Origin: Spirochaetia bacterium
GTDB lineage: Bacteria; Spirochaetota; Spirochaetia; SP-2023
Assembly (NCBI GenBank): GCA_965263295.1
Contig: OZ253665.1
Coordinates: forward strand, 1-64,000
Direction of reading: 5' to 3'
DNA: 64,000 nt
Position 1 is the stretch's first letter. The number at the start of each line of letters is the position of its first letter. The position numbers were made by a program, and so were the translations under genes. The notes under the pieces are model-generated. The model saw only the letters and a program-made list of their open reading frames with translations. It was not told the DNA's origin and did not search any database. This document shows positions 10,491-64,000 of the stretch, piece by piece.

Positions 10491-11726
10491 CTAGATTTGG
10501 ATTTCGGCCACACCGCCAGTGGCATCAGAGAGATAAAACTCTGGCTCCCAGCCAAACTGCTGCCGATAGGCACTGGCGATGCGTTGCTGCATTGGCTTTA
10601 ACAGCGCTTGATCGGCGGCCGCATCTCCACCGAGCTGTAACAGGGCGATACAACAACCGCCGAATCCAGCTCCAGTCATGCGCGCGCCCAACACGGCATT
10701 CTCGCTTTCGAGCAAGCTCACCAGGCTGTCTAGGTGCGGCCCACTGACTTCGTAGTCATTTTGTAACGATCGGTGCGAAGCTGTCAGCAATTTGCCCAGT
10801 TGGGCCCAGGCGCCCGCCCGCATGGCGGCGGCGGCGGCACGGGTGCGGCTGTTTTCAGTAACTGCGTGGCGCACTCGGTTTTGCAGTTTTGCACTATCGG
10901 CCAGAAAGTCGAGGGCGCGGGGCAGGTCGGTTTCTGAAATACCACACAGCTGGCTGATGTTGCGAAAATCTGGGGCCTGTTGCAAGATCTTCAGAGCTGC
11001 GGCACATTCGCTGCGGCGTTCGTTGTACCTGGATTCCTGTAGTTTGCGCGGCAGTTTGGTATTGGCGATAAGAAAGGCAGAGGTTCCCAGGCGCAACGGT
11101 ATCTGTTCGTAGTTCAAGGTGGCGCAGTCCAGATAGCAAGCCTTTTTTGCCTGGGCCACGGCAATGATAAACTGGTCCATAATTCCGCAGCGCATATCGC
11201 AGAATTCATTTTCGGCTTTTTGGGCGAGTGTGGCCAGGCGTTCGCGGCTCAGTTCCAGAGCGCTGTAACTCTGCAGAATGTAGCCCGTCAAGACTTCAAT
11301 TGAGGCCGAGGAGGAGAGGCCGGAGCCTCCGCTGGGCAGGTTCCCGAAAAATACAATGTCCAATCCGCAAGGCAGCTCCATTCCCTCTTGACGCAGCACC
11401 TCAACCATGCCGAGAACGTAGTTGCACCAACCCTGTTCTGCGCGGTAAGTCAGTTTGTCGCCCGCCATGGCAAAAGTCTGCGGTCCGCTTTCTTTGAAGT
11501 TGTGGGAGTACAAACGCAGGAGCCTGTCGCCGCGCGGAGCGACGGCGGCAGCCGTGCCCAGACTTATGGCACAGGGGAACACCTTGCCACCATTATAATC
11601 AATGTGCTCGCCAATGATGTTGATGCGCCCGGGAGCAAAAAAATATCTCTGCGCCGCCAGTTCATAATGCCGCTCAAATTGCTGTCGGCAGACTGCTGCC
11701 AGTTCTGCGCCTGAATTTTGTACCAT
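10491..11726 (-). CDS. galK: Galactokinase
   Basis: APGRINIIGEHIDYNGG, GSGLSSSAS, CGIMDQ, GARMTGAGFGG. Confidence 0.97.
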   Translation of the reverse strand: MVQNSGAELAAVCRQQFERHYELAAQRYFFAPGRINIIGEHIDYNGGKVFPCAISLGTAAAVAPRGDRLLRLYSHNFKESGPQTFAMAGDKLTYRAEQGWCNYVLGMVEVLRQEGMELPCGLDIVFFGNLPSGGSGLSSSASIEVLTGYILQSYSALELSRERLATLAQKAENEFCDMRCGIMDQFIIAVAQAKKACYLDCATLNYEQIPLRLGTSAFLIANTKLPRKLQESRYNERRSECAAALKILQQAPDFRNISQLCGISETDLPRALDFLADSAKLQNRVRHAVTENSRTRAAAAAMRAGAWAQLGKLLTASHRSLQNDYEVSGPHLDSLVSLLESENAVLGARMTGAGFGGCCIALLQLGGDAAADQALLKPMQQRIASAYRQQFGWEPEFYLSDATGGVAEIQI

Positions 11727-11929
11727 GCATTTTACCTTTGTTCTATGACCGCAGTATTTTGTGCCATAGTAATGAAATTTGTCAAGTATTCAATACGATA
11801 TGCGAGAATAATCACATACGGTGCTCCACTTGCAAAGCGCAATACGGCTAGCCTTCCGTATAAAAAAATACCCTGATATACGGAAGAAATTGGACGAGAT
11901 AACTAACTTTTGAATTACCTTAGCTTTAA

Positions 11930-50026: not shown

Positions 50027-50399
50027 GGGGGTGTACTGGATTCGACTGGAGGTTTATGGTAGCTGGACGGCAGGTGGAGCGTAACTCCTTAAAATGCAAA
50101 CTCTTTTAGTTGCCAAGGAAGAAGAAAACTTCGTACTCGCAGAAGCTGAGTACGAAGAATTGGCACTGGCTGCCTAGCAGCCACGGGCTTAGGGAATGCG
50201 GCTTCGAGTTCCCGTTAGCTTGTTAGACTCCGAGGCTTGCCGCTGTTCATGTGCTGCGGGGCAGTGGGACTTTTAGCAGTGCTGGCAGTCGCCAAGCACG
50301 TTAGCTTGTCTTTGCGGCTGTGAGATCCGATAGCTGACTAAACCTGTAGAAGTTCATCTGTCACCCTTTGGCACGCGGGTTCGATTCCCGCCACCTCCA
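50027..50399 (+). ncRNA. ssrA: tmRNA
   Basis: 5' GGGGGTGTACTGGATTCGAC; 3' GCGGGTTCGATTCCCGCCACCTCCA; tag ORF 50112-50177 encodes AKEEENFVLAEAEYEELALAA*. Confidence 0.96.
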
Positions 50400-50450
50400 A
50401 TTATAATAAAAGCCGCAGCATACGCTGCGGCTTTTATTATAATTGGAGGT
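50393..50450 (+). terminator. Perfect 27-bp hairpin, probable ssrA terminator
   Basis: ACCTCCAATTATAATAAAAGCCGCAGC-ATAC-GCTGCGGCTTTTATTATAATTGGAGGT; GC stem followed by TTTTATT. Confidence 0.8.
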
Positions 50451-50642
50451 CCAGTTTGGAGGCCAGGATTGAGAGTTGAGTATCTGGCAGCGATCGTTTG
50501 CTTTTGTTCCCCTGTGACTTGCGGCAGTCAAGTGAGTTACGATCTTTAAACCGGCGGGATGAATTGACATAGCGGCCAGATTTTCTTACTTTTGCTAAAA
50601 ATACCTTGTTGATGAGCCAGGTTATTGGTAGGAGGTGATTTA

Positions 50643-52226
50643 ATGGATAAGAATCAAGACAATTTGGATTTAGCGATGCTGATTGAAAACGGCGCGTCTG
50701 AAGGCGAGGTTCAGGCGGACGCTTTGGCCGATAAAATGGATATACCGCCAGACGGCGCAGAGAAGACCCGGGGCGTTGTCCGTTCGTTTATTCGCTCATA
50801 CAAGAATAAGTCTCCTGAGCTATCGAATAGGGAATGGCTTGCTAGTGAATTTTCCAAATATCCGGAAATTTGGCTTGATCAGAGTGAATTGACCCAAACT
50901 GTGGGGGAAGTGGTTGGGCAAGTGGAGCTCTTTGATGCCTCAAATCAGGAACTCGCAGAACATCATCACAAAGGGCTGAGTACAAATAATTGGCTTGCGA
51001 AAAAAATTGAACAGGGGGCATCGGCAAGTGGTGTCACCAATTTGGGAGCTTATGCCGGAGAAATTGATGGGGCGATTGAAACAGCCAACAAGGCGAATGT
51101 CGACTTGCTGTATCGCAATGATGGTCAACTGAATCAACAGTACAACCTGGATGGTTTCATTGCCGAACAGCATCATGCCGATACTTTCAATTTAGATGCG
51201 GCGGCCAAAGGCAGTGGATACCGGGCAGAGGTTTTGCAACCGAAACCTGGCGAGCCGTATGGAAAAAATTCAGTGGATATTGTTGTTCGGAATGGGGATG
51301 GCAAAATTGTCCGTCGCTACCAGTCTAAGTATGGTAAAGATGCCGATGCCACGGATGCGATGTTAAAACAAGGTGATTATCGCGGGCAGCGCAAGCTGGT
51401 TCCTAAAGGGCAGTCCGAAGATATTGCCGGCAGCACCGAGAAAATTGAAATTGATGGCGTGGAGTCGCAGCCGCTTTCCAAGCATGAAGCCAAAGAGTGG
51501 CAACGCAAAGCGCAGGAAAAAGCCGAGGCCAGGCAATATGACTGGAATCAAACCAGCAGAATAGATATCGCCAAGAATATCGGCAAAAAAGCCGGCGCGA
51601 CCGCGCTGCTATCTGTGGGCTTCCAAGGCGCCCGCATTCTCGGCCGGCGGATATGGAACAAAATCAAGGGAAAAGAAAATAAGAGCGTAGAAGAGGATCT
51701 CCAAGAGTTTGTCGGGAGTTCAATTAAATCCGCGGCGACGTCCGGCCTGACGGTTGCGGTCACAGGAGGCTTGACGGTTGCGGTAAAAAGCGGTTGGCTG
51801 GGCAAAGTCCTGAAAGCGACTCCGGCGGGCAGGATTGCGAATGCCGTTTGCCTGGGGATTGAAAATGTCAAAATCCTCTACAAATATGCAACGGGCGAGC
51901 TGAGCAGAGAAGAAGCCCTCAATCAAGCAAGCAGCGCCACATGCAGCCTCGTCGGCGGTCTAGCTGGCGGCGCGAAGGGGGCGAGTGTCGGGGCCGCAGT
52001 CGGGACCGCACTGGGACCGGTTGGCACTGCAATTGGCGGCGTGGTCGGTGGCGTGGTCGGCGGAATCGCGGGAAGTAGCGTCGGCCAAGCGATACACGAA
52101 GGTGGCAAAAAAATTGTTACCGCCGTTGTTGAAAAGGTTAAGTCCGTTGGAACCGCGATCTACAGCGGTGTAAAATCAATTTTCAGTGGCGTAAAATCAC
52201 GTGTAAAATCAATATTGGGGTTTTAG
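50643..52226 (+). CDS. Uncharacterised protein: putative PD-(D/E)xK-like central domain plus C-terminal glycine zipper
   Basis: GFIAEQHH..TFN...SVDIVV...YQSKY; Gly-rich GxxxG stretch near the C-terminus; ATG at 50643 after AGGAGG. Confidence 0.8.
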   Translation: MDKNQDNLDLAMLIENGASEGEVQADALADKMDIPPDGAEKTRGVVRSFIRSYKNKSPELSNREWLASEFSKYPEIWLDQSELTQTVGEVVGQVELFDASNQELAEHHHKGLSTNNWLAKKIEQGASASGVTNLGAYAGEIDGAIETANKANVDLLYRNDGQLNQQYNLDGFIAEQHHADTFNLDAAAKGSGYRAEVLQPKPGEPYGKNSVDIVVRNGDGKIVRRYQSKYGKDADATDAMLKQGDYRGQRKLVPKGQSEDIAGSTEKIEIDGVESQPLSKHEAKEWQRKAQEKAEARQYDWNQTSRIDIAKNIGKKAGATALLSVGFQGARILGRRIWNKIKGKENKSVEEDLQEFVGSSIKSAATSGLTVAVTGGLTVAVKSGWLGKVLKATPAGRIANAVCLGIENVKILYKYATGELSREEALNQASSATCSLVGGLAGGAKGASVGAAVGTALGPVGTAIGGVVGGVVGGIAGSSVGQAIHEGGKKIVTAVVEKVKSVGTAIYSGVKSIFSGVKSRVKSILGF

Positions 52227-52228
52227 GT

Positions 52229-54247
52229 ATGGATTCTAAAAGAATTGTTGAAAAAATTCGTTCTGGTGTCTCAGGCCTCCATATACAGTCTGGCGATTAC
52301 AAACGTGTCGATAAAGTGATTGGATCAATCGCCACCGAATTAGATTTTAGGGTCTCCGAGTGGAATAGGGGATACGGGTGGGTCGATTTTAAGACCAAGC
52401 AGCCGCGCGATTCTAATGCCGAGGTATGCCTTTATAAAGACTTGCAAGCCATTGCCGATGACGACCCCTCTACCCCTAGGGGAAAAATTTATGTCATTCA
52501 AGATGCCCGCTCCGCGTTGGAAAACAGCCCTGGGGCTCCCGAACGTCTGAAACGGGAATTATTGCGACTCCAGACTCATTTCGGGGGGCATGCAGCGATT
52601 CTTCTGGTCGCCAAAGAAGGCATTAGTTTTCCAGCATTTTCCGATCTGATCAAGACCTTTCCTTGCCCCCCGCTCGCATCTGATGAGGTCAAAGCAATTC
52701 TGACTGCATTTCAGGCCGAGAACGATATTTCAATGGCTCCTGCGGTAAAAAACAAACTCATATCCACCTGCTCGGGCATGGAAGAGTATATGGTGCTTCA
52801 GGTCCTGAAAATTTTAAAGAACAACCATGGCCAGTCCTTCGCCGAAGGAGCGGTAGATGATGCTGTAAATCAAAAAAAGTCCTTCCTGTCACAGTCCGGG
52901 CTGCTTGAGCTGATTGATGCGCCAATCAACATGGCTGGAATTGGCGGTTTGGGCCGGTTTAAAAGGTGGTTGCGGGACAAGAAGAAGCCCATCATGGATG
53001 ATTTGTCCCAGGCACAAGAATATGGCATCGCCGCCCCGAAAGGCGTCCTGTTGGCCGGTATGCCCGGATGCGGGAAATCAATGAGTGCCAAGGCTGCGGC
53101 GTCACTATTCAATGTCCCCCTGCTGCGCTTGGACGTTGGATCTGTAATGGGAAAATTTGTCGGCGAAAGTGAAGCCAACATGAAGGCGGCACTTCAAGTG
53201 GCAGAAACAGCGAGCCCCTGTGTGTTATGGATGGATGAACTTGAGAAGGCCTTTGCCGGGGTCAATAGTTCTGGCGGCAGCACGGAGATAACCACGCGAC
53301 TTTTTGGTTATTTTCTGACGTGGATGCAGGAGAAGCCGGGAGCCGTCTTTGTGGTGGCCACAGTGAATGATCTTAGCTCTACACCTCCTGAATTATTGAG
53401 GCGTGGGCGTTTTGATGAGATTTTTTATATTGATCTGCCTGCTGAGTTTGAGCGTGAGGAGATTTTTGAATTAAAGATTAAGGGACTATCCACCAAATCT
53501 AAAGCTGCTGTCAACGTTTCCCAAAACCTGGATTTTGCCGCATTGGCCGAAAACAGCGAAGGTTTCTCCGGGGCGGATATTGAACAAGTTATCCAAGGTG
53601 CCTTGACAGACCTGTTTCTGCAGCGTAATTCATCGGAGGAAAATCTAGAGTTGACCCAGGCGGATCTCGCGCGACACATTCAGTCGACCACCCCGATGAG
53701 CGTGGCTCTCAAAGACAAGGTTCAAAGCGACAGAAAAAATTTTGAGGGTTATAAACTTGAAAATGCTTCATTTTCGGAGGAAGAGCACCGTAAATTTCAG
53801 TCCACCCAACCCATGGGTGTGGTTGTCAAAGACAAGATTCAAATTGGCAAAGAACAGTCTGAGCAATATAAAGAACAGCCTAAGCAATATAAAATTAAAA
53901 GGTTTGAAGAAACATTTAGAGAATTTTACATGTCTTACCAACATCTAATATTTAACCGTAATCGCCTAAAATTTTATTCAAATTTAAGCGATAACGAACG
54001 TGAAGAATATAAAGAAGACTTTGAAGGATATAAAGAAGACTTTGAAGAATATAAAGAACACTTTGAAAAATTCAAGAACATTAGATACTTAGATAGTTTT
54101 TTTACAAGAAAATATGAAAGATTTTTGGAAGGCTTTCAAAAATTGAAAAGAACTGAATTATTTAAATCAGAAAATTTTAAAGAATTATTTGAAGAGCTTG
54201 AAGAAATATTTACCATCTTGGGTGATATATATGCTATTGTGAGCTAA
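52229..54247 (+). CDS. AAA+ ATPase, Ycf46-like
   Basis: IGGLGRFKRWL, PKGVLLAGMPGCGKS, VLWMDELEKAF, PPELLRRGRFDEIFYIDLP, GFSGADIE. Confidence 0.92.
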   Translation: MDSKRIVEKIRSGVSGLHIQSGDYKRVDKVIGSIATELDFRVSEWNRGYGWVDFKTKQPRDSNAEVCLYKDLQAIADDDPSTPRGKIYVIQDARSALENSPGAPERLKRELLRLQTHFGGHAAILLVAKEGISFPAFSDLIKTFPCPPLASDEVKAILTAFQAENDISMAPAVKNKLISTCSGMEEYMVLQVLKILKNNHGQSFAEGAVDDAVNQKKSFLSQSGLLELIDAPINMAGIGGLGRFKRWLRDKKKPIMDDLSQAQEYGIAAPKGVLLAGMPGCGKSMSAKAAASLFNVPLLRLDVGSVMGKFVGESEANMKAALQVAETASPCVLWMDELEKAFAGVNSSGGSTEITTRLFGYFLTWMQEKPGAVFVVATVNDLSSTPPELLRRGRFDEIFYIDLPAEFEREEIFELKIKGLSTKSKAAVNVSQNLDFAALAENSEGFSGADIEQVIQGALTDLFLQRNSSEENLELTQADLARHIQSTTPMSVALKDKVQSDRKNFEGYKLENASFSEEEHRKFQSTQPMGVVVKDKIQIGKEQSEQYKEQPKQYKIKRFEETFREFYMSYQHLIFNRNRLKFYSNLSDNEREEYKEDFEGYKEDFEEYKEHFEKFKNIRYLDSFFTRKYERFLEGFQKLKRTELFKSENFKELFEELEEIFTILGDIYAIVS

Positions 54248-54487: not shown

Positions 54488-55579
54488 ATGGGAAAAGACA
54501 AAAACATTTCCATAAAGTTAAGAAAAATATCCATTGAGAACTACAAAGGCATTGATTCCTTCTCAATGGATTTTCCGGTGCCTAAGCTGCCTGGAGACCC
54601 TGATATACTGATTATGGGAAGTGAAAATGGTTTAGGGAAAACATCGATTATTGAGTGCTGCGCTCTTCTTTTGATGTGTCTGAGTATAAAGGAAAAAACT
54701 TTTGAGTTGAGGGATAGGTATCTTCCAATTGATGTCCCAGATCTGCTCATTAGGGCGGGAAGCAATGCCGCTGGGATAACGGGTGATATCGTTATTGATG
54801 ACAAAATTATAAAGATTGGGATATCAATTGATCGAGATGGGGTGGTCAAAATAAATAAAAATATCCCAAAATCGAAATCTTCTGAGACTTCTCTCATTGA
54901 TGAAGATAGTGATGTTGAGGAATTGCTGAAAGTGATCTGTGGCTTTTCGCTCAACCCGGTTATTGAGAATTCATTTCTGCTTTTCCACAGCTACCGTAAA
55001 GTTCAGGAAGGTAACCCTGAGTTGGGCATGATGGTCAGTGACACTGAGTCTAGAAAAATGCGTAGAATGCTGGCATACCGTCGTATGGAAATGCCTTTGA
55101 GTAAATTTAAAATTCTTTTTCTTCGCTCATTGATGAACCGAGCTGATCTCTTTGAATTTTCCGAGGAAAAAGAATCGAAGGAAACCATCGATAAATTGAA
55201 CGAGTTGGTGGAATTCTACGCTGGCGGAAGAATCAGCAAGTTGCGACCGTCGCCAGAAAATACGTTGGATTTTAGAATTAAACTTGGTAATGCCAGTCAC
55301 TCCGTTACATTTGATGGACTCAGCTCCGGCCAGAAGGAGATTATTTCAACACTATTTCTTATTTGGTATCAAACCAAGAACAAACATTCGGTCGTGTTTA
55401 TTGATGAACCCGAGCTGCACCTGAATGCTCAGTGGCACAGAAATTTTGTAAACATGCTGATTAAGCTGGCACCTGAAAATCAGTATGTTTTTGCTACGCA
55501 TTCCGAAGATATTATGGATTCTGTTGCAGAGAATTGCCGTATTATCCTCGTGAAAGATAAGGGGAACAGCAATGCTTAA
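54488..55579 (+). CDS. ABC-type (AAA_15/AAA_21) ATPase of OLD/AbiEii-like defence modules
   Basis: ISIENYKGI, GSENGLGKTS, LSSGQKE, VFIDEPELHL, ATHS; ATG at 54488 after AGGAG. Confidence 0.88.
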   Translation: MGKDKNISIKLRKISIENYKGIDSFSMDFPVPKLPGDPDILIMGSENGLGKTSIIECCALLLMCLSIKEKTFELRDRYLPIDVPDLLIRAGSNAAGITGDIVIDDKIIKIGISIDRDGVVKINKNIPKSKSSETSLIDEDSDVEELLKVICGFSLNPVIENSFLLFHSYRKVQEGNPELGMMVSDTESRKMRRMLAYRRMEMPLSKFKILFLRSLMNRADLFEFSEEKESKETIDKLNELVEFYAGGRISKLRPSPENTLDFRIKLGNASHSVTFDGLSSGQKEIISTLFLIWYQTKNKHSVVFIDEPELHLNAQWHRNFVNMLIKLAPENQYVFATHSEDIMDSVAENCRIILVKDKGNSNA

Positions 55580-56476
55580 GGCAAGAAACCCATTTCTCCT
55601 GAAGAGGTTTGTTTTGCCAGTCAGCACGTATTGTTTGTAGAGGGGGACGAAAAATCTTTTGATTGTAAGGTGCTGGAAGAGCTTTTTGACCGTAAACTCC
55701 GCATTGAACCTCTTGGGGCATCTTTTTCTGTTAAAAGCGTGGCACAAGCCTTATCTACTTACCACCCGTCTTATTATTTCCTGATTGATAGAGACCATCA
55801 GAAAGATGAAGATGTCGAGAAATGTTGGAAAAATTTTCCCAATCTAGATACGTACAACCTTCTTGTCTGGAAGCGTAGAGAAATCGAGAACTATTTTTTG
55901 GAACCAGATTATCTCTCTGAATCGCAATATTGTGAGGTCTCAAAAGAAGAGCTGAAACAAAAGATTCTTAAATTTTCAAAGGCCAGAATATTTCTGGATG
56001 CTGCCAACCATGTTCTTATTTCCATCAGAGAAGAATTGAAACAGACTTGGATTAAAAAGTTTAAAAATCCCCATGATTTTTCGAGCAAAAAAGCCGCATG
56101 GAAAAAACTGAAAGATGCCAGTGAATTTGAACAACACGTTGCGGATGTACACCGACAGGTTTCGCTTGATGAACGTAAAAAAAGATTCGATCAGTACCTT
56201 GATCACATGACCGGTGGACAGTGTCAAATATCCTTTGGGACTGGATCATGGCTAAGCCTGATTCAGGGAAAAGAGGTTTTAAACCAAATTATCAATTCGG
56301 AATGTTTTAAGGTTAAGGCTAACGACGGTACTCAATTAGACGGTAAAGATAAAAAGAAGACTGTCATCCAGGACCTTCTTAAGAAAGATGAGAGTATCCT
56401 TCCTTCTGACTTTAATGAGCTAAAAAAACTGATTAATATTAAAGTAAACGGTGGAATTAAACGAACAAGTCTATGA
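55580..56476 (+). CDS. TOPRIM/DUF4435-like protein, start ambiguous
   Basis: LFVEG, LIDRD, REIENY motifs; frame open from 55580; ATG at 55572 is out of frame by 1 nt. Confidence 0.75.
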   Translation, partial: GKKPISPEEVCFASQHVLFVEGDEKSFDCKVLEELFDRKLRIEPLGASFSVKSVAQALSTYHPSYYFLIDRDHQKDEDVEKCWKNFPNLDTYNLLVWKRREIENYFLEPDYLSESQYCEVSKEELKQKILKFSKARIFLDAANHVLISIREELKQTWIKKFKNPHDFSSKKAAWKKLKDASEFEQHVADVHRQVSLDERKKRFDQYLDHMTGGQCQISFGTGSWLSLIQGKEVLNQIINSECFKVKANDGTQLDGKDKKKTVIQDLLKKDESILPSDFNELKKLINIKVNGGIKRTSL

Positions 56477-56530: not shown

Positions 56531-56739
56531 CTTTTCTGGGGCAGCCCTGTCCACAGTCGGTTCTGCAATTGACCGCAGACGCACGCTGATTGGTCAGCTG
56601 CAGGAACTTCGTTTCAATTCCTCTGAAGGACTCCCAGCCGCCAAACGCATCCTGCCATTCACACCACGGGGCATTCTGTCTCGGGTGCTCTTCCAAAAAT
56701 TGCCACAGCCGGGTTTCACTCACCGTCGTCCTCCGCGCC

Positions 56740-57365
56740 GGAAATAACAAATCCACGGCGAATCAGCCACTCTTCCAGAATTTCGGCATCATCATCGGCA
56801 CTCACAACGGCACCATCTACAACGCCGATTACCTGTTCCGCAGGCCCGGCCTGCCGCGCTATGCCGAGGTGGACAGCGAGCTGTTTTTCCGGCTGGCCGA
56901 CCGCTTTGCACCCGACGGAACCATCGACGGCAGAGGCTTCCGCAAAGCCCTGCGCCTGTATCGCGGCCAAATGAGCGCCGTGTTGGCCTCACGACTCGAT
57001 CCCGTGGCCATCACCGTCATCAAGGGGAACAAACCGCTGTCGCTGCGTTACAGCCGCAAACACCGGGCGGTGCTCTACGCCTCGGAACCGGAATATATTG
57101 ATTGGGGATTGCAGATTGGCGATTGCGGATTTGAAGACATAGCTGCAGTCCGAAGCTCACACGCCCAAACCGCCCATTCTAAAAATCCACAGTCCGAAAT
57201 CCAAAATCCGATCTGGATGACCTGCGTGGCTGGCGCGAGCTGGAAATTCCGCCGCTCACCATCCTGACTTTCCGCCATGAAGCCCTCAAGGAATGGCAGA
57301 GCCATCCCTTCAGATTTGTCTGTCAGGAACGTAAAGGAACCTTACCCGAAGAAGTGAAAGCATGA
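56740..57365 (+). pseudogene. Class II glutamine amidotransferase-like gene, 5'-truncated and interrupted
   Basis: IIGTHNGTIYNAD, AEVDSE, KGNKPL, LYASE; C-terminus LDDLRGWRELEIPP...EVKA* resumes at 57213 in another frame. Confidence 0.75.
57100..57213. repeat. Inverted heptamer-repeat hairpin element
   Basis: GATTGGG GATTGCA GATTGGC GATTGCG GATT ... AATCCAC AGTCCGA AATCCAA AATCCGA. Confidence 0.8.
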
Positions 57366-57781
57366 AAAACAACGACAACCAACTCCGGCTTTTTGTCTAT
57401 GGAACCCTGAAAAAGGGATTCTGGAACTTTGACCGGTTCTGCACCCGGGCCATCAGTATTGAACCAGCCACCACTTGGGGAAGACTCTACCAGCTGCCCG
57501 CCGGATTCCCCGCCTTGGAAGTCCCGGAGCGCTCAATAATAGCCACCGGTATCGCCGATCCGCTGGCCGCTGGCCGATACCCGAACCCAGAACACCATCG
57601 AGCTACCCCAAAATGGAATGACCCGCCCGGAAGGCGATTGCGATCTGGTCCACGGGGAACTAATGACCTTCGCCAATCCCGGCTTCGACCTGCCGCCTAT
57701 CGATCGGTGGACATACCATGGCTTCGACCATATCCTCCGAGGCAGTTTGCGCCTTCCCGATGGGTACTGGGATGGCAATAA
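57362..57781 (+). pseudogene. Gamma-glutamylcyclotransferase, frameshifted and truncated
   Basis: LFVYGTLKKGFWN, GRLYQLPAGFPAL; the continuation DLVHGELMTFANPGFDLPPIDR lies in another frame. Confidence 0.8.
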
Positions 57782-57953
57782 ATTCGGCTAAACTCGGTTA
57801 AATCAGGAAAGAAAACTTGATTTTTTCATTTCATCTATATATCTTTATCCCTGTTTAACCTAATGTAGCCGGATTGTGCCGCTATGGGATGCCGTCCGGT
57901 TAAATAACTTGACGAGCCGTTTGGACGGCTCTCAAAGAATGATGGAGTCGAAA

Positions 57954-58202
57954 ATGGAAGACAGATGGTTGTCCGTAGATGAAATTGGAGACTATCTCGG
58001 GATCAAGCGAGATACCGTCTATAAGTGGATAAGCGAGAAAGGCATGCCCGCTCATAAAATCGGTCGTCTTTGGAAATTCAAAAAGGAACAGATCGATGCA
58101 TGGGTGGAAGCTGGCGGCGCAGCAACAGGAACAACAGAAGATCAGGCAGAGACGATGCCGGTGAAAAAGAATTTAAAGCAGTCTGGAGGCGATAATGAGT
58201 AA
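57954..58202 (+). CDS. Excisionase-like HTH (HTH_17) protein
   Basis: [26 protein letters not shown]...[11 protein letters not shown]. Confidence 0.9.
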
Positions 58203-59829
58203 CAACAACACCGGTGCAAATCTCGGATTTGAAGATAAACTTTGGATGGCGGCTGACAAGCTGCGCGGCACAATGGACTCCGCAGAGTACAAACATGTGG
58301 TGCTCGGTCTGATCTTTTTGAAATATATCTCCGACTCTTTTCTCGAAAAATACGAAGCATTGCAGGCTGAAGAATTCGCTGATCCGGAAGACCGTGATGA
58401 ATATCTGGCGGACAACGTGTTCTGGGTTCCTACGGAAGCTCGCTGGAGCTTCTTGCAAGGCAAGGCCAAAGACCCGAAGATCGGCCAGCTGATCGATGAG
58501 GCCATGATGGCTATTGAGCGGGACAACAAAACGCTCAAAGGCGTTCTGCCTAAAGACTATGCTCGGCCTGCGCTCGATAAATCCCGCCTTGGACAATTGA
58601 TAGATTTGATTGCCACTATCGGCCTTGGTGATGCCGAGAGCAGAAAGAAAGATATTCTGGGTCGTGTGTATGAATACTTTCTCGCCAAGTTTGCTGAAAA
58701 AGAAGGCAAAGGCGGTGGTGAATTCTATACGCCGCAGTGTGTGGTAAAGCTGTTGGTTGAAATGCTGGAGCCTTACAGCGGCCGAGTCTATGACCCGTGC
58801 TGCGGTTCAGGCGGTATGTTTGTTCAGGCCATTAAGTTTGTACAGGCCCATTCCAACGGAAACGGCAATGGTAACGGTGTTCCCAATGGCGTGAAGCGGG
58901 ATATCGCCATTTACGGGCAGGAATCCAACTACACTACCTTCCGTCTGGCCAAGATGAATATGGCCATTCGCGGCATTGATGCCCACATCGAATGGGCTGA
59001 TACGTTCCAGAACGACAAACACAAGGATCTCAAAGCCGACTACATCATTGCCAATCCGCCGTTCAATGATGAGGACTGGGGATTCTCCAAGGTAAAAGAA
59101 GATGTCCGCTGGGCATTCGGCACCCCTCCAGCAGGCGGCCCCCGTAAGCAGAAGGACGGCTCAACCATCAACGTGGATGGTGGCAACGCCAACTATGCGT
59201 GGATTCAACATTTTGTTCACCACCTTAGCCCCGGAGGAACAGCCGGTTTTGTTCTGGCCAACGGCTCCATGTCCACAAACACTTCCGGCGAAGGTGAAAT
59301 CCGCCAGAAACTGATCGAAGCCGACATGGTCGATTGCATGATCGCGCTGCCCGGCCAGCTCTTCTACACCACGCAGATTCCGGTATGCCTCTGGTTCATG
59401 ACCCGCTCCAAGAAAGTCGATGCCAAACGCGGATATCGCGACCGGCAAGGTGAAACCCTCTTTATCGACGCTCGTAAAATGGGTTCATTGATCGACCGGA
59501 CACATCGCGAACTTTCTTCTGACGGCCCGGAGAGTGAAATTGCTGAAATCGCTCGCACCTACCACGCTTGGCGTGGTGAGAAAAAAGACGGCGACTATGA
59601 AGATAAGCCAGGTTTCTGTAAATCCGCCACTTTGGATGATATTAAGTCCCATCACTATGTACTGACTCCCGGCCGTTATGTCGGAGCAGAAGCCATTGTG
59701 GATGACGGGATTCCTTTTGAAGAAAAAATAGCTGAGCTTTCCGACACCCTTTACGAGCAGATGCGAGAATCCATTGAACTGGATGCGGTGATTCGAAAGA
59801 ATCTGGAGGTGCTGGGCTATGGAGAATAA
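58195..59829 (+). CDS. hsdM: Type I restriction-modification methyltransferase subunit
   Basis: [40 protein letters not shown]. Confidence 0.96.
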
Positions 59830-61702
59830 TTGGTCGCCAGTTTCCTTTTCTGATGCTGTTAATCTGAACCCTACGGTGAAATTAACAAAGGGTGAGGAAT
59901 ATCCTTTTGTTGACATGAAATCGGTTGATCCAGCTTGGCGTGAAGTCACTTTTAGCGAGCTACGCGCTTTTAAAAGCGGTGGCGCAAAATTTATTCCCAA
60001 AGACACTTTAATGGCACGGATTACTCCATGCCTTGAGAATGGAAAGATTGCTCGCTATCTCCCAGCAGGGAAGAAGGGTGAAGCTTTCGGCTCAACTGAG
60101 TTCATTGTCATTCGCGGCAAAGATGGTGTAACGGATAATGACTTTGCTTATTACTTAACCATGTGGCCGGAATTTAGAGATTTTGCTATCTCCCAAATGA
60201 CAGGGAGTTCCGGAAGACAGAGAGTACCTGTTGATTCGTTGGCAGGTTTTAATTTCAACCTTCCCCCCCTTACCGAACAAAGAGCCATTGCCCATGTTCT
60301 CGGTTCACTGGATGACAAGATCAAACTGAACCGGCGGATGAATGAAACGCTGGAGGCGATGGCGCAGGTGCTGTTTAAAAGCTGGTTTATTGATTTTGAC
60401 CCAGCATTGGATAATGCGATATTAGCCGGTAATCCGATCCCTGATGCACTTGAAGAAAGAGCAGAGATACGACGGGCTATACTGGCTCAAAATCAACCCT
60501 CACCGCCAGCCCCTCTCCCAGAGGTAGAGGGGAGTAATGCTTTGTGCCCTCATCCTCAGTCCTTTTCTCAGAGTGAGAAGGATGCAAATTATAGGGGTGG
60601 GTTTGATTTTTCAGGCTTAGCAGACACTGCCCGAGAATTGAGACAGAAACAAACTCCTGCTGAAAAGGTGATGTGGTCAATGCTTCGTAACCGAAATTTC
60701 ATGGGGCTGAAATTTAGGCGGCAGCATCAGATTGGCGAATACATCGCCGACTTCTACTGCCACGAAGAAAAACTGGTTGTCGAATTGGACGGAAAAATCC
60801 ATGAACAGAAAATCGCAAAAGACCAGAAGCGCAATGCCTATATGCAATCCATAGGGTTAATCGTTTTACGTTTTACAAACGAACAATTCCTCTCGGATCC
60901 AGAAGTCGTGCTAAACGATATTGCCAACGTTTTACAGAAAGAAAAAAGCGAGAAATTGCAGGATCACAATAGCTCCTCTCCCACTGGGAGAGGCGGGAGT
61001 GAGGGATTTTCGGATTCCATCCGAAAATTATTCCCCTCCGAATTTGAACACACCGAAGAAATGGGCTGGATTCCGAAGGAGTGGACCACACAACCTCTGT
61101 ATGAAATAGCAAACTTCATTAATGGTGCTGCTTATAAAAATTTCCATTTCACTGATGAACCGGGGGCACTGCCTGTGGTGAAAATTGCTGAAATCAAGAA
61201 TGGTGTGTCTGCTCAGACTAAGTTCACCAAAACAGAGCTTGCAGATAAATATCGAATTGATGACGGTGACATTCTTTTCTCGTGGTCTGGAAATCCAGAT
61301 ACTTCTATTGATACCTTCGTGTGGACTGGTGGCCCAGGGTGGCTGAATCAACACATTTTCAATGTCTCATTGAACGATGATGCTGATAGAAATTTTGTTT
61401 ACTATCAACTCAAGCTTTTGAGGCCAGATTTTGCAGAAATCGCACGCAACAAGCAGACGACAGGTTTAGGCCATGTAACAGCTCAAGATATGAAGAGAAT
61501 GCACGTCACCAAATGCCCATCTTCAATCTTGCAGGCTTTTAACACTTATGCTGGCTCGCTATTCGATAGATGGTATTCAAACTTATTGGCTATCAAGAAT
61601 AAATCCAAGCTTCGCGACACCCTTCTCCCCAAACTTTTATCCGGCGAGATACGGATACCCGAAGCGGAAAAGCTGATAAAAAGTGTGAATGGTGAAGGGT
61701 AA
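59819..61702 (+). CDS. hsdS: Type I restriction-modification specificity subunit with in-frame DUF559 insertion
   Basis: [42 protein letters not shown]; internal [12 protein letters not shown]...[17 protein letters not shown]...VELDG..H. Confidence 0.93.
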
Positions 61703-61713
61703 AGGGTGAAAAT

Positions 61714-62043
61714 ATGAAGCGAGATTTACCAGACAGAACCAAAGAGTTTGCCTTGCGGGTTATCCGCCTTTGTCAGGTTTTGGATGAAAAGCCGGGTATT
61801 AACCGAGCACTTGCGAAACAGTTATTACGCTCTGGAACATCTATTGGAGCGAATGTCGCAGAAATGGGTGAAATTGACAGTGCATCTTTCTCATTTCGTT
61901 ACGATGGCGATTGGAGTAAGGGTGAATACTGGATCGGCTATGATAACCTGAAAAACGATTTTAACTGGTTTTTTGACGGGCTAGAAAAAGCCTATCATCT
62001 GGTTTTAAAAAATCAGGGAAAACAGACAGGGGTGAAGCAATGA
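61714..62043 (+). pseudogene. Four-helix-bundle (23S rRNA IVP-like) N-terminus fused to an unrelated fragment
   Basis: RTKEFALRVIRL...QLLRSGTSIGANVAE, then non-family sequence; heptamer repeats at 61685-61712. Confidence 0.7.
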
Positions 62044-63356
62044 TTTCTATTGATTCAATACATGATTTTAACTTTGAGCATGTCCCCATAGATTCCTTTT
62101 GGAACACCGGCGTTCAGCGTGAACAGAAAATGCATAGGATACACGCATACCCGGCCAAGTTTCCAGCATTCATCACAAGCAAGGCTCTGGAATATTGGAA
62201 TAGCAATAGCGCCAATCCTCCTGAGCGCATAGCAGATATATTTTGTGGCTGCGGAACCACAGCATTCGAAGCCAGGCGAAATTCGATTGATTTTTGGGGT
62301 TGCGACATAAATCCTGTAGCAACCCTAATTGCAAAAGCTAAGAGCCGCAAATATCAACCCGGTAGACTTCAGAGTTATTATGATAAGATTTTGGATGATT
62401 ACGCAGTATCTCTTCGTGAAGATCGTTATGAAGCGGCTCCTGAACGTTTGCAATATTGGTATTTTAAAGATCAGTACAATGATCTGTCACATTTGAAGGA
62501 TGTTATTTTCTCTGTCACACCGGAAAATAGTGACTACCGACTATTTTTCCTCTGCGCCTTCTCAAACATATTAAAACCGACCTCACGATGGCTGACCAAG
62601 TCTATCAAGCCTCAAGTCGATCCCAACAAGAAGCTTCCTAAAGTCATAGATGTGTTTAGAGAACAGTTCAAAATGATGTATTCCGCAAATCAGGAAATAG
62701 AAGATTTGAGCAGCGCGGATTCGAATATTGTGACAGGAAGTTTTTTAAGTGATTCATGGGATGTCCCTTCGGTTGATATGATCATAACAAGTCCCCCTTA
62801 TGTTACATCATATGAATATGCCGATTTACATCAACTTTCATCTCTATGGTTGGGCTACGTCGATGATTACAGGGATTTGAGAAACGGGACAATTGGAAGC
62901 CTTCACCACGACTATAACTTCAACAAGGAATTGAAGAGGCTGAATTCAACTGGGTTGAAAATCGTAACTCTCTTACTGGATCAGCATAAATCAAAGGCGA
63001 GGTCTGTTGCCAAATACTTTCTCGACATGCAGTCGGTTGCTCAAAAGACGTTTTCAATTCTTAATTCGAGTGGAGCAGCATTATTTGTTATCGGAAACAC
63101 AGAATACAAAAACGTGCGAATTGATAATGCCAAGCACCTAGCCGAGTCTCTGTTTGATGCAGGCTTTTCTTCCGTGAATGTAACCAAACGGAAAATAAGC
63201 AATAAAATCCTGACTCCTTACAGGGATAAACGCGGCAAGTTTACGACCAATGCGGCCGGACGGAAAGTGTACAGTGAAGAGTTTATAATTATCGGGAGAA
63301 AATTAATATGGAACAGAAAAAACAACTTCAAATCAGGCCCTATGCCCGACTGCTGA
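62040..63356 (+). CDS. Site-specific DNA methyltransferase (amino-MTase, likely m4C)
   Basis: IHAYPAKFP, DIFCGCGTT, DINP, IITSPPY. Confidence 0.9.
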   Translation: MISIDSIHDFNFEHVPIDSFWNTGVQREQKMHRIHAYPAKFPAFITSKALEYWNSNSANPPERIADIFCGCGTTAFEARRNSIDFWGCDINPVATLIAKAKSRKYQPGRLQSYYDKILDDYAVSLREDRYEAAPERLQYWYFKDQYNDLSHLKDVIFSVTPENSDYRLFFLCAFSNILKPTSRWLTKSIKPQVDPNKKLPKVIDVFREQFKMMYSANQEIEDLSSADSNIVTGSFLSDSWDVPSVDMIITSPPYVTSYEYADLHQLSSLWLGYVDDYRDLRNGTIGSLHHDYNFNKELKRLNSTGLKIVTLLLDQHKSKARSVAKYFLDMQSVAQKTFSILNSSGAALFVIGNTEYKNVRIDNAKHLAESLFDAGFSSVNVTKRKISNKILTPYRDKRGKFTTNAAGRKVYSEEFIIIGRKLIWNRKNNFKSGPMPDC

Positions 63357-64000
63357 CAATGTTGGGTGAGCAGCTGATTAAAAACGAAAGAATCGCCCTC
63401 ATCGAGCTGATTAAGAATTCTTACGATGCGGATGCAGGTTGGGTAAAAGTGACTTTTCAGGGATTCGGCAATAACTACAAAATTGAAGAGGGATCTAAAA
63501 TCATTATTGAAGACAATGGTCACGGTATGAGTCAGGATCTGATTGAAAATCACTGGCTTAACCCGGCAACCCCTGAAAAGAAGCGCAGAAAAAAGACGAA
63601 AGATACGACCAGCAAAGGCAGGATCATACAAGGTGAAAAAGGTATCGGGCGCTTTGCCATCCTCAAGCTAGGGCGGCGGATAGAAATTATCAGCAAGACA
63701 AACGAGGATCTGCAGGAACACCATATTTCGTATGATTTCTCACGATATGATGACGATTTTCTTTCGGAAAACGGTGATGAAAAAGATCTGTACATTGACG
63801 ATCTAAGGGTGACGCTTTTAAACCGCAATCCCCAAAGAATAGTCCCCTCAGAACTTACATTCGGTTCCCGAAAAAAAGAGAGGCTAAACCATGGCACCAT
63901 CATTGAGATAAGCGACCTAAAGGGAAGCTGGACAGAAAAGAAGGTCGAATCGGTTTACAGAGATCTAACCAAGCTGGAGTCGATATTTTTGAAAAGAGAA
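63308..64000 (+). CDS. GHKL (HATPase_c_3) ATPase / histidine-kinase-like protein, runs off the window
   Basis: IRPYARLLTMLGEQLIKNERIALIELIKNSYDADA, EDNGHGM, GEKGIGRFA, HGTII. Confidence 0.9.
   Translation, partial: MEQKKQLQIRPYARLLTMLGEQLIKNERIALIELIKNSYDADAGWVKVTFQGFGNNYKIEEGSKIIIEDNGHGMSQDLIENHWLNPATPEKKRRKKTKDTTSKGRIIQGEKGIGRFAILKLGRRIEIISKTNEDLQEHHISYDFSRYDDDFLSENGDEKDLYIDDLRVTLLNRNPQRIVPSELTFGSRKKERLNHGTIIEISDLKGSWTEKKVESVYRDLTKLESIFLKRE

Follow-up and report, generated by a model that had tools for sequence, protein, structure and literature searches.

What is the function of two closely spaced genes that lie directly behind ssrA in the genome of a Spirochaetia bacterium, and do they form part of a system that is already known? 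The genes occupy positions 50643–54247 of a stretch of 64,000 nucleotides (contig OZ253665.1 of assembly GCA_965263295.1, positions 1–64,000, forward strand; hereafter the window). Gene 1 encodes a protein with a predicted nuclease-like core and a glycine zipper, and gene 2 an AAA+ ATPase of the Cdc48/SpoVK kind. The original prediction – made from the letters of the DNA alone – proposed the pair as a candidate new two-gene defence or toxin system. Novelty could not be sustained: the pair was described computationally by Bell et al. 2024 (eLife, PMC11090510). As to function, we read the window pair as a stand-alone copy of a conserved cassette comprising an ATPase and a restriction endonuclease (REase)-like/zipper protein, and predict that it is an anti-phage (abortive-infection) module; we place the probability of this reading at roughly 0.55.

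The features on which the argument turns are as follows (aa, amino acids):

50027..50399, + strand: ssrA (tmRNA; ARAGORN), tag AEAEYEELALAA; a landmark directly upstream, context rather than part of the module
50610..50642, + strand: start of DNA homology to CoCoNuT-type relatives (blastn) and ribosome-binding site of gene 1; AGGAGGTGA
50643..52226, + strand: gene 1, 527 aa; helical N-domain, REase-like core, then a helical/hydrophobic region with a glycine zipper; predicted effector
51135..51422, + strand: REase-like core of gene 1, aa 165–260; helix with E175, then strands with D212 and Q227-x-K229
51930..52097, + strand: glycine zipper of gene 1, aa 430–485
52229..54247, + strand: gene 2, 672 aa; Cdc48/SpoVK-like AAA+ ATPase
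52229..52933, + strand: N-domain of gene 2, aa 1–235; an AAA-like module, probably degenerate, with no Walker motifs
53006..53788, + strand: active AAA+ core and lid of gene 2, aa 260–520; pore loop K-F-V-G at aa 309–312
53789..54247, + strand: orphan C-terminal tail of gene 2, aa 521–672; charged, repeat-containing, predicted helical

The tmRNA is the sole tRNA-like gene across the whole window (ARAGORN), which puts the pair first among the genes behind ssrA; 3′ of the tmRNA, at 50400–50445, the sequence shows a hairpin and then a T-run. The open reading frame (ORF) of gene 1 spans 50625/50643–52226 (+), and its 527 aa are counted from ATG 50643, which we take to be the true start because AGGAGGTGA lies just 5′ of it and homologues begin at the same residue. 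Two nucleotides (52227–52228) separate the stop of gene 1 from the ATG of gene 2. On this layout the ORF list and ARAGORN agree with the original prediction.

A recurrent gene pair and its published relatives

Gene 1 belongs to a large and widely dispersed family. Among 8000 candidates scored, 1132 proteins reached E≤1e-3, and a library clustered at 50% identity held 1401 representatives at E≤1e-3 and 219 at E≤1e-30; the homologues all bear the source name 'hypothetical protein'. Pseudomonadota, Bacillota, Spirochaetota and Campylobacterota are included, along with other phyla. Copies 75–79% identical to gene 1 occur in Geobacter, Vibrio, Parashewanella, Pseudoalteromonas and Hahellaceae, and likeness of this order in such distant hosts indicates horizontal spread. 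The family is present on 21 of 72,556 plasmid records – ten of those plasmids are conjugative, and conjugative plasmids of Klebsiella and Enterobacter are among its carriers – and the CoCoNuT-type pair is present in 3 of 5426 complete E. coli genomes. Gene 1 is single-copy in its own 2.41-Mb genome; a search of 30 relatives of that genome, three of them of the same genus, did not find it, and it is thus accessory. A phage origin was considered and rejected: 2.9 million viral contigs contained no relative, the one match in 50,697 phage records was a short 'Bacteriophage sp.' contig with no annotation, and such collections are thus essentially free of it.

Evidence that the two genes form a unit came from the loci of relatives. 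In a genome collection 167 relatives of gene 1 were confirmed, and all locus counts refer to the best 80 loci among them. A homologue of gene 2 on the same strand accompanies gene 1 in 72 of these 80, across phyla: directly downstream in 29, downstream after 0.9–4.5 kb in 26, and directly upstream in 17 (mostly Bacillota). It is missing from eight; in six of these the contig extends no more than 737 nt downstream of gene 1, and in a further one (L012) 1959 nt; the eighth is taken up below. Pairwise distances of gene 1 and gene 2 are correlated (Mantel r 0.56 over 59 pairs, a value reached by 0 of 999 permutations), a correlation that shared descent inflates and alone can produce. Given the 219 clusters at the stricter threshold and the recurrence of the pair in 72 of 80 loci, the observed gene pair lies far beyond chance.

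The published counterpart is found in compound type III-A CoCoNuT operons. There Bell et al. 2024 describe a SpoVK-family AAA+ ATPase homologous to p97/CDC48 beside a 'bacteriocin-like glycine zipper' protein, the pair forming a second 5′ extension of the operon between two VWA genes. The ATPase is said to comprise tandem modules of which only the C-terminal one is active, and to end in an LRV repeat and a biotin-carrier-like barrel; the zipper protein is assigned a PD-(D/E)xK-type fold, read as inactivated and possibly nucleic-acid binding. That the window pair is a member of this cassette family is in our view highly probable. A protein in the 90% cluster of a sequence 77% identical to gene 1 (EGR1697762.1, our P0271, in the cluster of P0012) is adjacent in number to the ATPase exemplar of the paper, EGR1697763.1; the paper's exemplar of the gene 1 type, PSW96631.1, was not seen in the gene 1 clusters read. 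Gene 1 is 76–79%, and gene 2 55–60%, identical to the copies in six VWA-flanked loci (L001–L006), and a quick maximum-likelihood tree of 59 gene 1 sequences places the window protein inside the VWA-flanked clade (7 rows; SH-like approximate likelihood-ratio support 99), next to Geobacter sp. OR-1, on an end branch of 0.21 as against 0.02–0.10 for its six clade mates. The arrangement in relatives is illustrated by a Raoultella plasmid (VWA, gene 1, gene 2, DUF1887 CARF, hypothetical gene, PP2C, kinase, AAA) and by E. coli ZF34 (vWA, IS2, gene 1, gene 2, Card1-like, VWA, PP2C, kinase, DEAD/DEAH helicase and further genes to DUF2357, with BREX-1 alongside). Among the 80 loci the CoCoNuT setting is nonetheless in the minority, since a VWA gene is present in only 8 and a CARF nuclease in 5.

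The window copy differs from those six in its surroundings. DNA homology to L001–L006 (blastn) starts at 50610–50630, some 20 nt inside the part where the VWA gene of L005 ends, and ends at about 53467; tblastn with the VWA, CARF and kinase ORFs of L005 found no homologue in the whole genome at E<1e-3 (PP2C, below the 150-aa limit, was not among the queries). Because homology stops there and such homologues are missing, the window holds a bare pair with a different ATPase tail.

Could this copy be a decaying remnant, torn from a CoCoNuT operon by rearrangement of the island, deprived of its VWA partners and LRV-barrel module, and no longer working? The confined homology (50610–53467), the want of VWA, CARF or kinase homologues and the long end branch would suit such a history, as would the last part of gene 2 (aa 500–672), which has no relatives among proteins of 369–1176 aa, and the nearby GATase and GGACT fragments, which suggest local decay. 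Yet both frames are open over their full length behind a strong ribosome-binding site, every conserved catalytic residue is present in both proteins, and most relatives – the 72 of 80 loci without VWA – work outside a CoCoNuT context. Decay is in our judgement unlikely, and we continue to treat the window pair as a stand-alone copy of the cassette.

The two proteins

Gene 1 has no Pfam or NCBIfam family match, no relative in the PDB by sequence, either with the single sequence or with a core-domain profile (0 matches at E≤10 for the profile), and nothing beyond 'hypothetical protein' clusters in the ESM Atlas. The only region to match library families is the Gly-rich C-terminal part, where PHROG families of tail-associated lysins and tape-measure proteins match aa 298–492 (best E 5.2e-12, aa 298–485) and PADLOC models match weakly. 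Structure prediction is more informative. An AlphaFold model of the whole protein has a mean predicted local distance difference test score (pLDDT) of 76, with aa 40–300 mostly above 90 and a dip to about 68 at aa 121–140; folded alone from a 63-row alignment, the domain at aa 130–305 reaches pLDDT 90 and a predicted template-modelling score (pTM) of 0.88. The core of this domain model comprises a helix (169–188), strands at 194–197, 213–216 and 222–228, a helix (234–243) and a strand (250–252), that is, a predicted alpha-beta-beta-beta-alpha-beta topology, which is the order of restriction-endonuclease-like folds. The first helix carries E175; D212 immediately precedes the second strand, and Q227-x-K229 sits where the third ends.

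The original prediction had proposed a nuclease fold for this core. Foldseek with the domain model returned nothing at E≤1e-3, the top match being HindIII at E 0.023; REase-fold titles nevertheless dominate the lists, filling about 40 of 50 rows in one search and nearly all rows in another. To judge from the titles, these rows comprise restriction enzymes, Holliday-junction resolvases, PA-type endonucleases, Can/Card nucleases, YaeQ and 'restriction endonuclease-like fold' proteins. The core domain also exists alone in a defence-type island: a 204-aa hypothetical protein on the Acinetobacter soli plasmid pAS843-2 (L083, 6034–6648) matches gene 1 in the core only (aa 156–277, 34% identity) and sits amid N6 methylase, AAA/DUF3696, HNH and DUF262 genes.

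The motifs first noted in gene 1 are present as quoted – GFIAEQHH at aa 171–178, SVDIVV at 210–215, YQSKY at 226–230, and the GxxxG zipper – and the residues at their centre are strongly conserved. Among 81 relatives spanning 29–79% identity, E175 and D212 are kept in all 81, K229 in 80, Q249 in 79, and Q227 and N183 in 78 each; the middle acidic position of PD-(D/E)xK is thus a Q in 78 of 81 sequences. Conservation of this kind supports a working nuclease-like site. The arrangement E...D...QxK is found in active enzymes of the PD-(D/E)xK type, and the keeping of E175, D212, Q227 and K229 would argue against the published 'inactivated' reading.

The C-terminus is a glycine zipper, as had been claimed: nine overlapping GxxxGxxxG runs fall within aa 438–473, the last 227 residues contain 38 Gly, 28 Ala and 27 Val, and Kyte-Doolittle hydropathy peaks at 1.58, at aa 466. 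PADLOC v2.0.0 models match this region weakly in gene 1 (PDC-M09B, 2.5e-4; LeoB, 7.9e-4) and in one relative (LeoB, 9.8e-6, in the zipper of L062), the other gene 1 relatives giving nothing; we reject these as signs of membership.

Gene 2 is, as predicted, an intact classical AAA+ ATPase with Walker A and B motifs and arginine fingers (PF00004 AAA, E 1.8e-26). Its best solved relatives are p97/Cdc48/VAT, with the D2 module of Cdc48/p97 at E 1.7e-51, and phrog_8638 (function unknown) matches almost the whole of it (E 2.7e-95). The original label 'Ycf46-like' goes by resemblance: its general Pfam, NCBIfam and PHROG matches include no Ycf46 model, no search having been aimed at such a model. Across 54 relatives Walker A (G277–S284), Walker B (D336/E337), sensor-1 N380 and the arginine fingers R391/R394 are invariant; in the pore loop G308 and G312 never vary, while conservation of K309, Y/F310 and V311 is 90% or higher. 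An aromatic-hydrophobic-Gly pore loop is a mark of substrate-threading AAA+ rings, and gene 2 retains all of its catalytic and pore-loop residues. By hhalign the first 235 residues align with the second half of the active module (probability 62%, E 7.6e-5, 107 columns), and a PDB profile search with this domain found RFC alone, weakly (E 0.011); the domain probably represents a degenerate first ATPase module. At the other end, the tail (aa 521–672) has no Pfam family. Relatives align with gene 2 no further than aa 487–572, mostly to about aa 514–519, and continue with differing extensions of their own, which suggests that the orphan tail occupies the place of the relatives' variable module.

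The invariance of the pore loop and of all ATPase residues would also suit a scheme in which the ATPase is the working part. A variable module would deliver a phage protein, the ring would unfold and thereby neutralise it, and the cell would survive; gene 1 would be an inactive anchor or sensor that merely binds nucleic acid or tethers the ring to the membrane. The inactivated, possibly nucleic-acid-binding fold described by Bell et al. accords with this, as does the Q at the classical acidic position in 78 of 81 sequences, and the variable modules themselves (LRV/HEAT, FGE-sulfatase, Lcl_C, pentapeptide) are binding-type domains. However, retention of E175, D212 and K229 in 80–81 of 81 sequences at 29–79% identity goes beyond the need of an anchor, and the zipper resembles pore-forming or bacteriocin-type segments. 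We regard this scheme as doubtful and keep gene 1 as the predicted effector.

The third module and the proposed function

The related loci contain a third module besides the pair. Most of the genes between gene 1 and gene 2 (in Bacillota, those immediately before gene 2) have no Pfam family, though some of their proteins end in FGE-sulfatase, Lcl_C, pentapeptide or LRV_2 domains. BLASTP groups 23 of 32 sampled proteins of this kind together, and alignment reveals a common N-terminal domain (NTD) of about 85 aa. A hidden Markov model of the NTD, built from 28 sequences, places it at a protein N-terminus in 40 of the 80 loci; it is found in two to four proteins in a few loci, and is internal in one distal gene (L035). 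The model has no match in the window's genome. Two loci deserve mention for their inserts: L034 (3775–6351 and 9942–11367) carries four NTD ORFs, one with pentapeptide repeats and one with Sel1 repeats and a GTPase domain, and L014 has a Fic/DOC-domain gene (10993–11745) between gene 1 and gene 2, beside an NTD-carrying Lcl_C protein.

The distribution of the NTD gene was compared with the length of the ATPase extension in the 69 loci that have a whole gene 2 ORF, leaving out the eight without gene 2 and three in which it is interrupted or cut (L033, L045, L059). The NTD gene is present with an extension below 100 aa in 37 of the 69, and absent with an extension of 119–978 aa, often of LRV/HEAT repeats, in 28. 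Four loci have neither (NTD gene absent, extension below 100 aa), three of them on contigs of 2.1–6.4 kb and the fourth, L076, ending about 90 nt after gene 1; none has both (NTD gene present, extension of at least 100 aa). The third, variable module thus appears as an ATPase extension or as a separate NTD protein, never both. With its tail of 153 aa on gene 2 and no NTD gene, the window copy falls in the fused class. The notion of a two-gene system therefore stands as regards the pair, which is conserved, and falls short as regards completeness, for relatives carry a third variable module. As a separate observation, the gene 2 homologue of L059 (3185–4681, a Kluyvera metagenome-assembled genome) contains an in-frame stop, which may mark a pseudogene or an assembly error.

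Regulators are a further recurrent element. An HTH-WYL-WCX regulator is present in at least 35 of the 80 loci, 34 by tblastn with 12 queries and L069 by Pfam; Pfam WYL/WCX domains were found in 12 of 30 scanned upstream ORFs of one set and in 9 more ORFs in a flank scan, which covered 107 of the 161 previously unscanned flanking ORFs of at least 170 aa. On a Clostridium butyricum megaplasmid the order is WYL, hypothetical gene, AAA, gene 1, hypothetical gene. Defence-type genes in the flanks comprise AIPR with a C5 methylase, HsdR, Cap4 nuclease, Schlafen/AlbA_2, AAA-ATPase_like/PDDEXK_9, dynamin, RhuM/Fic and BREX, and mobility genes comprise a resolvase and a recombination directionality factor. 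The claim of a conserved module with defence-type regulators and neighbours is thus supported by the neighbourhood analysis, with linkage in 72 of 80 loci.

The same flanks bear on whether the position behind ssrA is meaningful. A Cdc48-like ring might serve as a helper in quality control or ribosome rescue, extracting stalled products; the location of the window pair would be in keeping with this, as would a remark in PMC11090510 that links these ATPases to tmRNA-binding SmpB-like domains. Yet a tmRNA gene flanks just 1 of the 80 related loci, and we reject a general functional link to tmRNA; gene 1, moreover, is accessory among the relatives searched. ssrA is a common integration site of islands. 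We hold the rescue scheme to be highly improbable.

Nor do these neighbourhoods resemble those of a secreted toxin. Gene 1 is multi-domain, and could be imagined as colicin-style, with a delivery domain, a nuclease and a pore-forming zipper, the ATPase aiding export or protecting the producer; Bell et al. liken the zipper to class II bacteriocins (HHpred PF10439, E 7.8e-3) and propose secretion for the sister EssC-type extension. But the conserved neighbourhood contains no signal peptide, double-glycine leader, immunity gene or exporter, the regulators are of the WYL type, as in BREX and CBASS in the sources drawn on here, and the cassette is embedded in restriction operons. A bacteriocin-like role is very unlikely.

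We return to the reading of the cassette as an anti-phage module and suggest how it might act. A hexamer of the gene 2 ATPase likely holds or remodels the gene 1 protein, and recognition of a phage product would fall to the variable third part. Among relatives that part would be the LRV/HEAT repeats fused to the ATPase or the separate protein with its NTD of about 85 aa and FGE-sulfatase, Lcl_C or pentapeptide end; in the window it would be the orphan tail of about 150 aa. Recognition would lead to ATP-driven remodelling and release of the effector, gene 1, whose zipper would insert into the inner membrane and/or whose nuclease-like site would act on nucleic acid, and either event would bring the infected cell to a halt. 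A WYL regulator would silence the operon in many relatives; the window copy has no WYL gene next to it. The balance of probability favours defence as the business of the cassette, and the PARIS-like pair and type I and II restriction-modification genes downstream of the window pair add a defence flavour; the specific chain from sensing through ring remodelling and effector release to the stopping of the cell is offered tentatively.

Several observations weigh against this reading. Many flank genes are housekeeping genes (LeuRS, HemA/C, ThiG, SufB, MurG, MCPs), so that enrichment in defence islands is partial. Bell et al. call the fold of the gene 1 type inactivated, and a hydrophobicity maximum of 1.58 is borderline for a membrane helix. 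One locus, L075 (a Treponema metagenome-assembled genome, 186–2796), has gene 1 and an NTD gene and no gene 2 in the following 4.2 kb: it is the one exception to linkage left unexplained by a contig end. The window copy itself has no WYL regulator, NTD gene or recognisable sensor domain and sits on a longer branch (0.21), and could be in decay. Neither gene 1 nor the NTD proteins are covered by a PADLOC v2.0.0 model, and the literature search found no experiment on any cassette member.

A bolder proposal, which we advance with considerable reserve, is that the cassette is the core of a widespread, unnamed three-part immune system – a Cdc48-like ring, a dual nuclease-and-pore effector and a swappable target-binding module that is fused to the ring or docks by way of the NTD – of which the CoCoNuT add-on is a side branch. 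The ring would arm the effector upon capture of a phage protein; and because the effector zipper resembles theirs, it is conceivable that the zipper co-assembles with tape-measure proteins at the membrane and so blocks genome entry. If the anti-phage reading is correct, bacterial immunity would here rely on a membrane/nuclease effector under the control of a Cdc48-type protein unfoldase, a logic for which the literature searched holds no experimental demonstration in phage defence. The either/or rule for the third module would provide a handle on target recognition, and the minimal two-gene form in the window, just 3.6 kb, a convenient object for the study of core function free of VWA, CARF and WYL partners.

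The island beyond the pair can be described briefly. The neighbours are as the original prediction had them – an ABC-type ATPase with an AriB-like gene, HsdM, HsdS and a type II-like methylase. The first ORF (54488–55579, +) encodes an ABC-type ATPase (AAA_21/AAA_15) that matches the PADLOC models PtuA and AriA (best 1.6e-22), and the second (55631–56476, +) a protein whose match is confined to the C-terminal half of the fused AriAB model (4.7e-11): by these matches, a putative PARIS-like or OLD-like ATPase/Toprim pair at 54488–56476, directly after gene 2. A short GATase_6 ORF (56590–57267, +) and a GGACT ORF (57362–57781, +) look like metabolic-gene fragments stranded in the island, and are followed by an HTH_17 (excisionase-type) gene at 57876–58202. 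HsdS (59819–61702, +; 627 aa) contains a complete DUF559 domain (Vsr-like endonuclease; aa 268–372, E 7.5e-37) between its two target-recognition halves. Next come a truncated 23S-rRNA-IVP four-helix protein (61714–62043, +), the type II-like methylase (62040–63356, +; PADLOC MTase_II, 4.1e-41) and an HATPase_c_3 protein matching REase_II models (63308–64000, +), which extends past the end of the window. No exact repeat of at least 14 nt of the ssrA 3′ end (50340–50399) was found downstream, and the far end of the island and an integrase were not located; the sole match to the ssrA 3′ end in the genome is a tRNA-like T-arm at 1,849,404.

Comparison with known systems

A check of the pair with PADLOC v2.0.0 gave no membership in a named system, its weak matches to the zipper and its matches to the AAA core being rejected. 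The AAA-core matches involve Ietas, which Gao and colleagues reportedly presented in 2020 as an AAA+ ATPase (IetA) with a protease (IetS). Ietas is likewise a two-gene module built on a classical-clade AAA+ ATPase, and IetA models match gene 2 at E 3.7e-21. However, the match is limited to the AAA core (model positions 112–325 of 374), the NCBIfam IteA model scores gene 2 at 71 bits against a cut-off of 510, and where Ietas has a serine-protease partner no protease family was found in gene 1 (Pfam, PADLOC); on these three grounds membership is rejected.

Published work offers few other points of contact. A literature search on Ycf46 and phage defense found no paper, and one on SpoVK and anti-phage activity found only the CoCoNuT paper to be relevant. 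In the part of Kaur et al. 2020 (PMC7159879) consulted, Ycf46, the glycine zipper, LRV and CDC48 are not mentioned; the portion of the DefensePredictor preprint consulted has no WYL, glycine or CDC48 passage in its text, although the validated systems in its supplements could still include the pair. Defence operons under WYL control, of the BrxR/CapW type as far as the sources drawn on describe them, share with at least 35 of the 80 related loci an HTH-WYL-WCX gene directly upstream. The window copy differs from them in having no WYL gene, because ssrA lies directly upstream.

With p97/Cdc48/VAT gene 2 has in common an aromatic-hydrophobic-Gly pore loop and arginine fingers, and we infer for its family the same logic of one ring with swappable substrate-recruiting parts. 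Unlike them, it has a first module that is probably degenerate; its family uses bacterial repeat or lectin-like domains as adaptors and has a putative effector for a conserved partner, and a ubiquitin-like tag is not known.

The closest likeness is to the cassette of Bell et al. 2024, with which the window shares both protein families, the gene order and the zipper, and probably also the predicted REase-like fold and a tandem AAA layout in which only the second module would be active. The window lacks the flanking VWA genes, the CARF nuclease, the TerY-P triad and the CoCoNuT core; its flanks are ssrA upstream and an AriA-like gene downstream, in place of VWA genes, and its ATPase ends in an orphan tail rather than an LRV repeat and biotin-carrier-like barrel. 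Sections 9–12 of PMC11090510 make no mention of WYL-regulated stand-alone forms or of the either/or third module, and the wider WYL-regulated three-module family appears undescribed in the literature searched. The pair is known from comparative genomics without a system name of its own, and the copy behind ssrA, not new as a pair, is a stripped-down stand-alone variant of the cassette noted in 2024.

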